The notes beneath the pieces were generated by a model. It did no database searches. It was not told where the DNA came from and saw nothing but the letters and a program-made list of their open reading frames with translations. A program made the position numbers and the translations under genes. A stretch of DNA of 64,000 bases from NCBI GenBank assembly GCA_964016885.1, contig OZ024749.1, positions 38,688,001 to 38,752,000 of the forward strand, given 5' to 3'. Source of the DNA: Eledone cirrhosa. Its lineage: Eukaryota. Shown here piece by piece: positions 11,942 through 60,881 of this stretch (within the stretch, counting starts at the first letter, position 1; each line of letters opens with the position of its first letter).

Positions 11942-12192
11942 GTTTAATGGTAGCTATGATGCTTCCATAGGCGGTATGCCAGTTGAGCACTCTATGTTCT
12001 TACAGAGCAGAATGTGATATAATATAAAACGAAAAATTAGTGATGCATCTGGACTCAATTTATTGTGTGTTACAATTGTTTCGCCGACAGACAGCTCGAG
12101 ACACGATCATTGTATAGAGCTGTCTGTCGGCGAAACAATTGTAACACAATAAATTGAGTCCAGATGCATCACTGATTTTTCGTTTTATATTA
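11942..12192. mobile_element. Fold-back element with tail (family shared with 12232-12520 and 48780-49101)
   Basis: Arms about 12017-12097 and 12116-12192 containing GAAACAATTGTA; left tail with AGCACTC; (TA)n flanks. Confidence 0.72.
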
Positions 12193-12231
12193 TATATATA
12201 TATATATATATATATATATATATATATATAT

Positions 12232-12520
12232 GTATAATATGGAAAACAAAGAATCAGTGATGCATCTGGACTCAATTTATTACGTATTACAATTGTTTCT
12301 CCGGCGAACAGCTGGAGGTACGATCTGTTTGTGGATCGAGCCTGACTCTGGATTCACAAGTTCCTAAGATACGTCTAGTGATTTCGACGCAAATCTTCTT
12401 TCTGCTGGACTCCGACCCTTCGAATTTCTATCATCTGTCATCACTGATTCTTCGTTTTCCATATTATCATACTCTGCCCCGAAGGAGCATAGAGTGCTCA
12501 ACCGGCATACCGCCTATGAG
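12232..12520. mobile_element. Fold-back element, same family as 11942-12192
   Basis: Short inverted ends at about 12234-12260 and 12438-12466; right tail ACTCTGCCCCGAAGGAGCATAGAGTGCT. Confidence 0.68.
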
Positions 12521-12793
12521 TAGAGAACCGAAAAGAACACCGCAAAGCATTCTATCTGAAGTTCTAATGAGTCTGCCAATTAACAGCCTTCGAGGGACAT
12601 ATAAAAAGGCATTAAACTTGATAATAGATAGAATGTGTATGCACACATTTGTATACTTTCTTTTATATGAATTTAATCTTATACCATTTCATAAAAGAAT
12701 ACCATATTAACCTAGCAGCTTTAGAATATTATTAAGAATATCATGAAAAACTGTCAACCTTTAATGACAAACCCGGTAGGAACCAATCCCTCT

Positions 12794-13232
12794 CCTTTTT
12801 TAAGAACCTCTAAAATATTTTAATGAATATTTTGGTTTGGTATATAGCCAGGCTGGAGATCCCTGGCCTAGGCAAAAAGCAATCTCAGCCCTTTTTTAAG
12901 AACCTCTAAAATATTTTAATGAATATTTTGGTTTGGTATATAGCCAGGCTGGAGATCCCTGGCCTAGGCAAAAAGCAATCTCAGCCCTTTTTTAAGAACC
13001 TCTAAAATATTTTAATGAATATTTTGGTTTGGTATATAGCCAGGCTGGAGATCCCTGGCCTAGGCAAAAAGCAATCTCAGCCCTTTTTTAAGAACCTCTA
13101 AAATATTTTAATGAATATTTTGGTTTGGTATATAGCCAGGCTGGAGATCCCTGGCCTAGGCAAAAAGCAATCTCAGCCCTTTTTTAAGAACCTCTAAAAT
13201 ATTTTAATGAATATTTTGGCTTGGTATGTATC
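12794..13232. repeat. 96 bp tandem repeat, about 4.5 copies
   Basis: AAGAACCTC recurs at 12802, 12898, 12994, 13090 and 13186. Confidence 0.95.
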
Positions 13233-14394
13233 CAAATATTGATGAACCTTTTACCCCTCCCTCTTCTCTTTAATGGGAAGACAAAAGTATTATGTAATAT
13301 AACGTCAGGCAGAATCGGTAGAGCGTCGGACAAAAATGCTTTGCAGTATTTAGTTATGTGCCTTTACGTTTTGAGTTCAATTCCCGCCGGCCGAGGTTAG
13401 CTTTACCTGTCATCCGTACGCGGTCGATAAAACAAAGTACCAGTAATACACTGGATGGAGTCGATTTAGTCGACTTTGCCCCTTTCCTTCAAATTGCTGG
13501 CCTTGTCCCAAATTTAGAAACAATTATGTTATAATAAAATTATATAGTAATAGAACTATGGCTGTAAAAACAACTATCTCAATTCTTCTTTTTTTCTTTT
13601 TTTTTTTTATTAAACATGGCTATTTGACGGCCCCTTTTCCAATCTTCACAGTCATCCCACTCAACCATATAGGGGAGAAACTGACCCTTTTTCTTTTACA
13701 TAACACTGTACTAAATCTAGTTCAGTGGCCTTATTTCTTTCAACTGCAAATAAATATAAACACAATCTATCTTAAAAACAGGGGGAGATGAAACTAACAA
13801 AAGTAATGCTCTATTTATTTTCCCCCCAGGGATTATGCATTTACCAATGATAACTTTAATTGTCTTCTTTAGTTACGATTATACGTGATACCTTTTTTTT
13901 TATCTGTAAAATAACGTATATATTCATTTGTTTCTCAAGAGAAACTTTTTTGTTTTAGCTCCTGCTGACCTTTGAACGTTTTCTTTTTACTTTTATTCTT
14001 CATATCCTTATCTTAGCAACTATCAACTAATCTAAGGGCCTGACCTTCCATTCAAATACGCTTCTCTCTCTCTCTCTCTCTCTCTCTCTCTCTCTCTCTC
14101 TCTCTCTCTCTAGCCCTGTCTCTCTCTGTTGTCTCTCTCTCTCTCTCTCTCTCTCTCTCTCTCTCTATCTATCTCTCTAGCCCTCTATCTCTCTCTCTAA
14201 CTCTCTCTCTCTCTCTCTCTCTCTCTCACTCTCTCTCTCACTATCTCTCTCTCTCTCTCTCTCTCTCTCTCTCGCTCTCTCTCTCTCTCTCGCTCTCTCT
14301 CTCTCTCTCTCTCTCTCTCTCTCTCTCTCACTCTCTCTCTCTCTCTCTCTCTCTATATATATATATATATATATATATATATATATATATATAT

Positions 14395-57872: not shown

Positions 57873-58168
57873 ATATATATATATATATAGATAGATAGAT
57901 AGATATGTATGTATATATATATATTCCTTTATATGAGTTACATTACTAAATCTCTCCAAATTCTATATTGTTTTGGAAATTACTTGAAAACTATATGCAG
58001 TGTATCTATGAGAAATATGATAACGAAATGGTTAAGAAATACTTATTACTCTTCGGCTCTATTACAGTCCAATGTCCTAGCCAGTCCATACATACATTTG
58101 TCTCTTTTACAGTCCATATATACCTGTGTCTCTTTTACAGTCCATAAATACTTTTGTCTTTATTTCAG

Positions 58169-58320
58169 TCCAATGTCCTAGCCAGTCCATATAATCAGTT
58201 GGTCCCCTCGTTGTGTTTTGGTTTGACGGCCATCATTGCCGGATGTTTTGCACTCATTCTACCGGAAACACTGAACAGACATCTTCCTGACGACATTCAA
58301 GAAGCAGAAAATCAAGAAAG
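58169..58320 (+). CDS. SLC22/Orct-like transporter, exon 9
   Basis: tttcag acceptor; ...PSLCFG...LILPETLNRHLPDDIQEAE (LPET...LP signature after TM12); probable donor GTTAGT at 58321, or read-through to the stop at 58369. Confidence 0.9.
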
Positions 58321-58539
58321 GTTAGTTATGAACAAACTATTTCGTGTTATCTTTTTTGAAATCATTTGAGTTGTTGATGATGTTGTGCTGTTGTTGGTGG
58401 TGGTGGTGGTTGCTTTGTTCTTATTGTTGTTTTACATTGTATATATAATGTATCTAAGTAGGTGTGAGTATTTCCGTGCGCGTGGATGAGGGAGGGTACT
58501 GAATACAGTAGGAAGAGCAGATTTGAGGAAGAGATGCGG

Positions 58540-59012
58540 TGCAATTAGTCCATTGTGGTTAGATGTATTTAGAAAAAAATAAGCGTCTGTTCCATCTGGC
58601 GACGCGTGCTAGGGTGTCCGATGCAGGAAACGAACCCAAACACAGTAAGCCGATGTGTTGAATAACCGGCAGGGTGGAAATGTCAAGCCACCGACGATGG
58701 GTTGCCGACCTGGATGTTCCAAAGATGTTCGGCGAATCTGTCCACTAATTGCTGGCCGGTCTGACCAATGTATATGACCTCACATAATGTGCACCGGAGC
58801 TCATATATGAGGCTTGTATAAGTGCAACTGAAATAGTCCCTAGTATGAAAGCTATGGCCGTTAGGTCTGATGAGGGTGACGGTGTGGGTGATAAAGCTGA
58901 CGTGTCTCAGCGGTGTCGGGAGCAAGGATGGGATTCAGGAAAGGAGTTGGAAGGAGAGAAGAAACTGCGGACGAGAAGGTTCCTAATGCTGCATACGCGT
59001 TTAAAAGAGAGG
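58540..59012 (-). mobile_element. Penelope-like (Neptune-type) GIY-YIG endonuclease relic
   Basis: FSCTYTSLIYELRCTLCEVIYIGQTGQQLVDRFAEH...VA*HF...RRQMEQ, with stops; adjoins (TA)n. Confidence 0.8.
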
Positions 59013-59234
59013 AGTGTATATATATATATATATATATATATATATATATATATATATATATATATATATATATAGAGAGAGAGAGAGAGAGAGAGAGAGA
59101 GAGAGAGAGAGAGAGAGAGAGAGAGAGAAAAATAGTCGTTGAAACGGCTTGAGCTCTGCCGTCAGGCTTAAACATTCTCCTATATATAGAAATATATATA
59201 TATATATATATATATATATATATATATATATATA

Positions 59235-60881
59235 GTAAGGTGTATTATTGGTTGTGTAAAACGGTCCAATAAATTTATGTTAGCAATATTAAGTTCTCCA
59301 CGCTTTTGTATATCTCCAATTCCATTCAAGGGAACAGCTAGATGATGTAAAACGGAGTATAAGTATCAAAATGAAAATCTGAAGGCAAGGTAAAATTCCA
59401 ATCATTTTAATCACGACACATGTTTCAATAAGAGATAGATCGATCGTAAAGCCATGATCAATTATCACTGATCTCATCAGGTGAAAATGAATTGTCTTCA
59501 AATTCTTGATATGAGGGAGAAAATTAGCAATGTTCACTCACAGAGTTTATTCCCTCATATGAAAATCCAGTTGTCAGAAATACGGCGACTGCTATCAGCT
59601 TCAGTTAGGGTCATAAAACTGTCAAATCTCCATAGCTGCAAAGGACGCTGGACATTAATCAGATCTGAAGAAATACAGTCGGTCACAGTTAATGTGAGTG
59701 GGTACACACACACTCAACACCCATACACACCGGCTCGAGGTCAAAGAAAAAATATATATATATATATACACATATCAACACAGCATCAAACCTGTAGAAC
59801 TATAGAAGGTCATAATTAGTGTGAGTAGGTACACACACACTCTCACACACACCGAAGCGATGTCATAGAAAAAAAACAACAAATATAAGAATAAGAATAT
59901 ACCAACACAGCATTCACCGAAAGTTCGTTTACAAAACAACAAATGCTACATTGGTCAAATCTCAATTTGACGATGTAAATTGGAAATATTGGGTTAACCA
60001 CAGCCCCATACACACACACACACACACACACACACACACGCTCACACGCACACGCACACACACACACACAAGCAAGTAAGTTCAGTTCAGTGTTCGGTTA
60101 CACATGTTACAATTCAATCTATACATGTATAACCGAACACTGAACTGAACTGAACTGAACTGAACTTACTTGCTTGTGTGTGTGTGTGTGTGTGTGTGTG
60201 TGTGTGTGTGTGTGTGTGTGTGTGTGTGTGTGGTTAATCCAATATTTCCAATTTACATCGTCAAATTGAGATTTGACCAATGTAGTATTTGTTGTTTTGT
60301 AAACGAACTTTCGGTGAATGCTGTGTTGGTATATTCTTATTCTTATATTTGTTGTTTTTTCTATGACATCGCTTCGGTGTGTGTGAGAGTGTGTGTGTAC
60401 CTACTCACACTAATTGTGACGTTCTATAGTTCTACAGGTTTGATGCTGTGTTGATATGTGTATATATATATATATATATATATATATATATTGTTTTTCT
60501 TTGACCTCGAGCCGGTGTGTATGGGTGTTGAGTGTGTGTGTACCCACTCACATTAACTGTGACCGACTGTATTTCTACAGATTTGATTAATGTCCAGCGT
60601 CCTTTGCAGCTATGGAGATTTGACAGTTTTATGACCCTAACTGAAGCTGATAGGAGTCGCCCTATTTCTGACTACTGGATCTTCATATGAGGGAATAAAC
60701 TCTGTGAGTGAACATTGCTAATTTTCTCCCTCATATCAAGAATTTGAAGACAATTCATTTTCACCTGATGAGATCAGTGATAATTGATCATGGCTTTACG
60801 ATCGATCTATCTCTTATTGAAATATGTGTCGTGATTAAAATGATTGGAATTTTACCTTGCCTTCAGATTTTCATTTCGATA
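59235..60881. mobile_element. About 1.5 kb fold-back element with tail and hammerhead-like motif
   Basis: Arms about 59364-60106 and 60123-60881; tail 59235-59363. TCAC-CTGATGA...GAAA(C/T)ATGT-GTC-GTGA at 60761-60834 and on minus at 59411-59484. Confidence 0.75.

Follow-up and report, generated by a model that had tools for sequence, protein, structure and literature searches.

How do short fold-back elements come to lie inside (TA)n runs, and what are they copies of? This question is raised by a 64-kb stretch of AT-rich animal DNA from Eledone cirrhosa (OZ024749.1:38,688,001-38,752,000; assembly of 3.0 Gb), the whole of which we call the window. An initial annotation of the window listed 11 such elements and read them either as very abundant, ultra-truncated insertions of Penelope-like elements (PLEs) landing in (TA)n or as non-autonomous, retrozyme-like elements. 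We found that the fold-backs are 5'-truncated head-to-head insertions of coding PLEs. Families were named F plus the window coordinate of the family's first copy; for F14396 the 30 best relatives were examined, and for ten further families 10-30 copies each, plus longer stretches. Pair statistics refer to all fetched loci of the families, sampled from their own genome and not genome-wide, with arms of at least 28 bases.

The identification is carried by longer copies of the arms. Ten of the 11 families studied are collinear, elsewhere in their own genome, with a PLE open reading frame (ORF) for a reverse transcriptase (RT) and GIY-YIG endonuclease (EN), so that both the PLE alternative of the initial annotation and the check it had proposed, namely whether longer arm copies reach such ORFs, came out positive. 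Besides F14396, the linked loci are L224 (F47329), L226 (F11930), L219, L227 and L290 (F18495), L215 and L216 (F59235), L263 and L284-L286 (F53146), L292 (F52961), L228 and L230 (F40801), L221, L222 and L257 (F57450), and most of L317-L335 (F36813). No ORF was found in 25 loci of F48777, whose PLE membership is by similarity to F11930 only. In the 30 best F14396 relatives, the (TA)n-side end lies at one of two fixed points, separated by 64 bases, with (TA)n next to it, and an inverted truncated copy of variable length is often present as well. In F14396, F11930, F18495 and F53146, a partial tandem, or pseudo-long terminal repeat (pLTR), was seen in which arm plus tail leads into the 5' end of the ORF, and an optional tail with an inverted 5'-truncated copy was found across the PLE families here. 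Two or more motifs of the Hydra clade (DKT, RWK, a CxCX5C linker, and CxxC and CxH near E and N) are present in seven families, as scored in broken ORF pieces and with RWR as the RW motif. F40801 and F57450 have a CX2-5CxxC linker instead, and F36813 has a third type of PLE ORF. Pfam matched the F57450 EN to GIY-YIG (E 8.5e-7) and F40801 to RVT_1 at E 0.002 only, below cut-off; it missed the ORF pieces of the 14396 element. Of note, L228 and L230 are head-to-head pairs with 1-2 kb of ORF in both arms, that is, multi-kilobase perfect fold-backs.

The outer ends of these copies follow two rules. A TA repeat lies within 16 bases of 548 of the 630 arm 3' ends, compared with 13% of positions drawn at random from these loci (2675 of 20000). 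Moreover, exactly one arm is tailed in 190 of 199 distinct head-to-head pairs; seven pairs have no tail and two have both, of which one is partial and one probably a mispairing. Since the F47329 query included the tail, we also give the count without that family (167/176). Were tails chosen independently at each end, at most 50% of pairs would be expected to have a single one. The arm that reaches further 5' is the tail-less one in 38 pairs and the tailed one in 25, with both equal in 85, after 42 of the 190 had been set aside for long gaps. Junctions between the arms (n=188) overlap by 1-10 bases in 61 cases (raw count), are blunt in 13, contain inserted bases in 95, and show gaps of more than 200 bases that the reference does not explain in 19. 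Near the start of the tail, a bulged hairpin (ACUC-stem-loop-stem-bulge-GAGU) was present in 8 of the 11 window tails examined and in at most 0.6% of shuffled tails; its inner stems differ among tails, and one tail has a C-to-U change. The hairpin was not found in the tails of F36813, F57450, F40801 and the Hydra-type F59235, nor did the motif detect a second copy just past the tail end in F14396, F11930 and F53146, where a single match lay within an ORF. Where the 3' ends of neighbours face each other across one TA run, secondary tail-to-tail inverted repeats result (window 12116-12325; L125).

The two arms of a pair also resemble each other more than they resemble other copies. At non-CpG polymorphic sites, mismatch within pairs was 0.01-0.07 in six families and 0.20 in F57450, compared with 0.28-0.51 between pairs, and none of 1000 permutations was as low as the within-pair value (F36813 had too few pairs for this test).

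In four families the 5' ends of the copies pile up within 9-11 bases (F47329, 42/66; F57450, 37/53; F52961, 68/102; F53146, 40/64), and incidental copies in the loci of other families have the same peaks (8/16, 4/6, 35/60 and 19/27). Each of these peaks is located 5' of the hammerhead core. A TATA-like box stands 30-33 bases upstream in three of the four families, and there the site itself resembles an initiator. No 5'-end peak was seen at the hammerhead cleavage site in F47329, F57450 or F18495; in F53146 the arm filter conceals any ends at that site. Histograms were not used beyond the break where the long reference has foreign insertions (F53146, F59235) or is itself truncated (F40801, F59235, F48777). 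In addition, we used raw restriction site-associated DNA (RAD) reads that another study had obtained from three samples, and mapped them on a long copy of F53146; this mapping is not locus-specific. These reads contain opposite-strand joints near the F53146 pile-up, one of them in 37-40 reads each from 1-3 starts and another in 4-12 reads from 2-7 starts, and show ~300-335 loose ends per run at the site. In one run, depth at the site fell from ~2,200 to ~250 upstream, a roughly ninefold drop, with the reservation that RAD depth varies with restriction sites. Reads mapped on the 47329 copy were likewise not locus-specific, and none spans the copy. An assembly artefact is nevertheless unlikely, because arms differ within pairs and are asymmetric.

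Within the window, arms were detected by self-BLAST after masking of dinucleotide runs and by mapping with family references. The elements are as follows, with hammerhead cores given by position and strand.

571-667, minus strand: tail-only F47329 insertion between TA runs
11827-11885: tiny fold-back of a 12th family, both arms tail-less (masked self-BLAST)
11930-12195: F11930 pair, Hydra-type, with shortened hammerhead core; tailed arm minus (11931-12126), tail-less arm plus (12117-12195)
12232-12545: pair of a subfamily related to F11930; tail-less arm minus (12233-12325), tailed arm plus
14394-15944, minus strand: F14396 element, a long tail-less arm with PLE ORF remnant and a short inverted tailed arm (15773-15944); cores 14461(-) and 15813(+)
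17746-17881, plus strand: single tailed F14396 stub; core at 17750
18495-18917: F18495 pair, Hydra-type; tailed arm minus, tail-less arm plus; cores 18681(-) and 18821(+)
20012-20336: F57450 tailed arm, minus (20012-20208), with a small 5'-end hairpin (20284-20336)
20365-20472, plus strand: tiny F52961 copy; 12-base arms (direct sequence reading) and a 78-base tail
24898-25061: tiny F47329 pair; short tail-less arm minus, short arm with tail plus (family-reference mapping)
36809-37084: F36813 pair; tail-less arm minus, tailed arm plus; truncated 3' of the family's CCGAAGA-core hammerhead
40797-41336: F40801 pair, an exception with neither arm tailed; cores 41144(+) and 40989(-); family ORF with CX2-5CxxC linker
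47321-47759: F47329 pair, Hydra-type; cores 47428(-) and 47571(+); 83-base tail on plus; turn at the family's 5' hot spot
48777-49105: F48777 pair; tailed arm minus, longer tail-less arm plus; shortened core
52960-53084: F52961 pair, absent from the initial list; no canonical core
53141-53327: F53146 pair, Hydra-type; core 53201(+); 75-base tail; turn at the presumed transcription start
57440-57871: F57450 pair; core 57679(+); 44-base tail; turn at the family's 5' hot spot
59130-59183 and 61447-61502: further F52961 stubs
59235-60881: F59235 pair, Hydra-type; tailed arm minus (126-base tail), tail-less arm plus; cores 59480(-) and 60765(+)

PLE stubs thus cover at least 5.9 kb of the window by family mapping, with tails of 41-126 bases. 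The inverted arms that the initial annotation had described were recovered at all 11 places by masked self-BLAST and family mapping, and so were its tiny fold-backs, at 11827 (self-BLAST), 24908 (mapping) and 20365 (12-base arms read directly). Its common plan survives with respect to inverted arms and a one-sided tail. The short spacer fails at 14396, where the minus strand holds 1.27 kb of PLE ORF including the RT end (YRDD), a CxCX5C linker and a GIY-YIG-like domain (RT thumb, linker and GIY-YIG-like remnants in frames 14548-15000, 15001-15657 and 15658-15770), and the order of tail-less arm first and tailed arm second is reversed in 11930, 18495, 48777 and 59235, which have the tailed arm on the left. 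A (TA)n setting is general, except that 12232, which has an unpaired 5' extension between its arms, ends outside (TA)n on the right and therefore has the run on one side only. The element it gave as symmetric, at 40800, indeed lacks both tails in the window, whereas the F40801 family has a 60-base tail elsewhere in the genome. The 59235 element measures 1.65 kb with arms of ~630 bases. As for the families being mutually dissimilar, this does not apply to 11930, 12232 and 48777, which are 72-84% alike (F48777 and F11930, 72-77%), or to the hairpin motif common to 8 of the 11 tails. Genome-wide, exact 30-32-mers of three families gave 3,963, 9,206 and 10,414 matches, the last for F52961, the family with most; F18495 and F53146 arm patterns have thousands of exact matches each. 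The 11827 family has 167 exact 21-mer matches, and a link to an ORF, sought among its genomic copies, was not established.

A scan of the window for type I hammerheads gave 10 matches, nine of them inside these families, as against a mean of 0.33 and a maximum of 2 in 30 block shuffles of the window. That most elements contain a CUGANGA hammerhead, as first proposed, agrees with motif scan, eye and folding: of the 11 elements on the initial list, seven have the canonical core (14396, 18495, 40801, 47329, 53146, 57450 and 59235), with the 59235 cores in both arms coming from a stricter scan variant only and the 40801 hammerhead read by eye, its stem I being supported by folding (probability 0.89-0.96). 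By family, the core is likewise canonical in 7 of 11, F36813 has a CCGAAGA variant, and F11930, F48777 and F52961 have shortened or decayed versions. In F11930 and F48777 this is a six-letter core, YCUCGA, in 42 of 47 copies (loci L061-L090 and L234-L258); F52961 has CCAGAAA/U, lacks the GAAA box and has no canonical core (loci L291-L315). When five whole elements were folded, stem I had a probability of 0.000 and the arms paired with each other instead. We regard the hammerheads as passengers carried along with the PLE 3' end or pLTR, and folding predicts that the arm-arm duplex silences them in these copies. Rfam gave only hairpin-shaped microRNA matches below threshold among the 150 of 414 matches listed for the window, and ten family loci had no match at all; every Rfam model stayed below its threshold. 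At 5468-5600 lies a further hammerhead, small, canonical and of type I, with a two-base stem III and, after ~100 bases, a TA run; this probably marks one more PLE family, represented by the 3' end of a single arm.

How such pairs might be made can be considered in terms of target-primed reverse transcription. On balance, we consider it probable, if only just, that the two ends of a (TA)n break act as primers on a single uncleaved RNA, using its two start sites, and that the far ends of the cDNAs are joined. The GIY-YIG nuclease would cut both strands of the symmetric (TA)n target; one DNA end would prime at the far end of the tail, and the other at the UA-rich position that bounds the tail-less arms; in Hydra-type families, the bulged hairpin of the tail is a likely signal for this positioning. 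Synthesis of both cDNAs would pass through the uncleaved hammerhead on its way to the 5' end of the RNA. In four families it would frequently end by run-off at one defined position, probably where transcription begins in the upstream pLTR, and so produce the ultra-short copies. The two cDNA ends would be joined via short overlaps or small insertions. If both strands are cut and extended on symmetric (TA)n, the cDNAs run inwards with the same polarity and yield a head-to-head pair; the one-tail rule argues that the two ends use different start sites, and the variants shared by arms point to a single template. Since the transcript of a tandem PLE starts in the upstream pLTR (PMC6765202, PMC2377424), priming at the 5' tail copy would run off after 60-250 bases. 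Several of these steps have counterparts in vitro, where the protein of a PLE cleaves the two strands of AT-rich DNA and extends each of them, starts reverse transcription at two RNA sites bounding the tail, is predicted to form a dimer, and uses uncleaved RNA, hammerhead cleavage not being required (PMC11167929).

A fuller account, to which we give slightly less than an even chance, is coupled twin priming: a dimeric RT-endonuclease would cut both strands of (TA)n and use the two ends on one uncleaved RNA, one at each of two start sites set by a conserved bulged tail hairpin, the tens of thousands of tiny fold-backs would be run-off copies of the 5' pLTR that map transcription starts, and the hammerhead would be dispensable, given two abundant lineages without its core. 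In the twin priming of L1, both target strands likewise prime on one RNA and an inversion results; there, however, the second primer is internal and the parts do not overlap, whereas here both primers lie near the 3' end and the arms are inverted repeats.

A number of observations weigh against priming of both ends on one RNA, or against steps of it. Transcription start and template are deduced from DNA copies. At the F47329 pile-up a TATA-like box is missing, and the turn falls on a palindrome of 6 bases; F11930, F14396, F18495, F36813 and F40801 have no sharp 5' peak, and that of F48777, for which there is no long reference, is broader (18/42). The pile-up sites can equally be read as splice acceptors (YAG), and helix I is where an intron of Penelope ends (PMC4209133); we favour a start site over an acceptor because in single copies the element follows the TA run at once, without an exon in front of it. 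Nine pairs break the one-tail rule, about 200 arms are single with no partner within the fetched stretch, and start-site use in vitro did not differ between strands (PMC11167929). The test for shared variants was not significant in F48777 (p 0.34) and had no usable sites in F14396 and F59235. Where arms do share variants, this fits one RNA, two RNAs of one active master or later conversion between arms alike, and cannot tell among them. Finally, the Hydra-type protein of L010 matches nothing in Pfam or the PDB, so that the RT/EN identity of this type rests on motifs.

Among other explanations, a self-primed fold-back, in which antisense RNA or the first cDNA copies itself and the EN resolves the hairpin and removes one tail at an internal TA-rich site, seems to us unlikely. 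Self-priming on an antisense template is the published proposal for head-to-head palindromes (PMC3846280), the tail has been ascribed to EN-mediated resolution (Craig 2021, PMC8557442), and shared variants, symmetric turns such as the palindromic F47329 site and a TA-rich tail-less end would all follow from it. A simple snap-back, however, would make one fixed arm type the longer, whereas the longer arm is tail-less in 38 pairs and tailed in 25; kilobases of ORF occur on either arm type, both outer ends match fixed sites resembling the two in vitro start sites, and 95 of 188 junctions contain inserted bases. Shared variants would also arise if a second ribonucleoprotein of the same active master primed at the other end, or inserted beside the first copy, provided that one master is active per cell. 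The ~200 single arms, and the frequency with which PLEs adjoin one another in these loci, are compatible with two RNAs or successive insertions; independent choice of start sites, on the other hand, would give at most 50% one-tail pairs against the 95% observed, so that an extra coupling rule would be needed, and we regard this explanation as quite unlikely.

We give little credence to the idea that the short copies are non-autonomous, retrozyme-like or short interspersed element (SINE)-like RNAs, processed by the hammerhead and mobilised in trans. Their very high numbers and the fixed 5' ends in four families would suit such RNAs, and retrozymes are reported as derived from pLTRs (bioRxiv 10.64898/2026.07.22.740005). 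Yet the same sequences run on into ORFs, two abundant lineages lack a canonical core, and the upstream TATA-like box is lost from short copies; in addition, 5' ends lie upstream of the core, none of the three families assessable shows a pile-up at the cleavage site, and no tandem monomers occur among these copies, so that the second alternative of the initial annotation was not upheld. Metazoan non-LTR retrozymes share with our elements a type I hammerhead, small size and a link to PLEs; they are tandem ORF-less monomers, whereas we found inverted pairs or singles continuous with ORFs, and we therefore rejected this class. It is highly improbable that the elements derive from a DNA transposon as miniature inverted-repeat transposable elements (MITEs), or that they are artefacts of assembling long reads. 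Terminal inverted repeats with TA flanks would be in keeping with the former, and no read was seen crossing a window copy end to end. A MITE, however, has fixed length, matching termini and a DNA-transposon parent; these copies have variable inner truncation, unequal ends with a one-sided tail, and RT/GIY-YIG ORFs of retroelements, for which reason MITEs were rejected. Arms within a pair also differ by several percent, and opposite-strand joints occur in the short raw reads of another study.

The elements, hammerheads and layout are already known, and what we add are quantified rules. Craig 2021 (PMC8557442) described the hammerheads and (TA)n preference of PLEs and drew their layout, an inverted truncated copy with a tail often at one end only; some of the families here may already be in its supplements. 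Its Hydra-clade EN+ PLEs are like ours in having a C-terminal EN, DKT, the CxCX5C linker and CxxC/CxH around E and N, as well as (TA)n targets, hammerheads and an inverted 5'-truncated copy with an often one-sided tail. They differ in tail length (30-40 bases, compared with 64-126 here) and in that few families outside cnidarians were reported, whereas we found at least seven Hydra-type families with thousands of copies; the passages of that study on the Hydra clade give no one-tail count, 5' pile-up or tail hairpin, all of which are given here. Poseidon PAc of Anolis (PMC11167929) shares the two tail-bounding RT starts, the AT-rich cut, the extension of both strands, the predicted dimer and the use of uncleaved RNA. 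Its tail lies inside the ORF start, compared with 41-157 bases before the ATG in three families here, and the accessible text of that study leaves inverted pairs unexplained and the two start sites uncoupled. Cercyon of Schistosoma (PMC4209133) has dual minimal hammerheads on opposite strands, 100-700 bases apart, that were taken as truncated PLEs, a matter of one sentence in the text available, without tails, targets or mechanism. Penelope of Adineta (PMC3846280) has a head-to-head inverted pLTR, an optional tail and TATA and initiator-like pLTR motifs; there, self-priming on an antisense template is invoked, target site duplications are visible and copy number is low. Active Penelope families and MITEs also figure in a repeat annotation of an octopus, whose available part does not show the fold-back layout (PMC13282606). 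In the open-licence literature we found no twin-priming account of PLEs.

The origin of the inverted repeats and one-sided tails of PLEs was posed as an open question in Craig 2021 (PMC8557442), and the in vitro study leaves the later integration steps unvalidated in its accessible text (PMC11167929). The remark that tails are often one-sided now becomes a 95% rule across several PLE clades, and the counts make PLE integration testable through two start sites, one RNA, a mutable hairpin and a mappable start site. They also mean that tens of thousands of genomic sites are PLE stubs, which MITE finders would misfile.

Turning to neighbouring sequence, exons of a host gene resembling MFS/sugar transporters, with weak Pfam matches, lie at 51956-58320 (+); we take the gene to be of SLC22 type. 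The fold-backs at 52960, 53141 and 57440 are inside its introns and would form duplexes in the pre-mRNA. Intronic fold-backs of this kind would make long perfect RNA duplexes, likely substrates of RNA editing. A non-LTR reverse transcriptase fragment (RVT_1, E 8e-16) with a terminal TA run is found at 23589-24290 (+), and two copies of a further TA-flanked repeat at 5753-6002 and 7919-8166; at other loci (L265) the end of this repeat stands inverted next to PLE stubs. Three tandem arrays, whose units measure ~96, 92 and 181 bases, occupy 12781-13234, 22016-22801 and 62785-63379; the window scan gave no hammerhead motif in them, and no further ribozyme check was made. A ~185-base SINE-like repeat is present in many copies of both orientations, often as short tandems (2300-3044, 7085-7281, 27430-32070 and 53724-56690). 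Upstream of the hammerhead in the pLTRs of F14396 and F40801, which belong to different clades, lies the palindrome GCGCATGCGC (window 14508-14518), presumably an NRF1-type site. Lastly, Rep/helicase frames that we assume to be Helitron-like lie upstream of an F36813 arm at L220:2000-5800.

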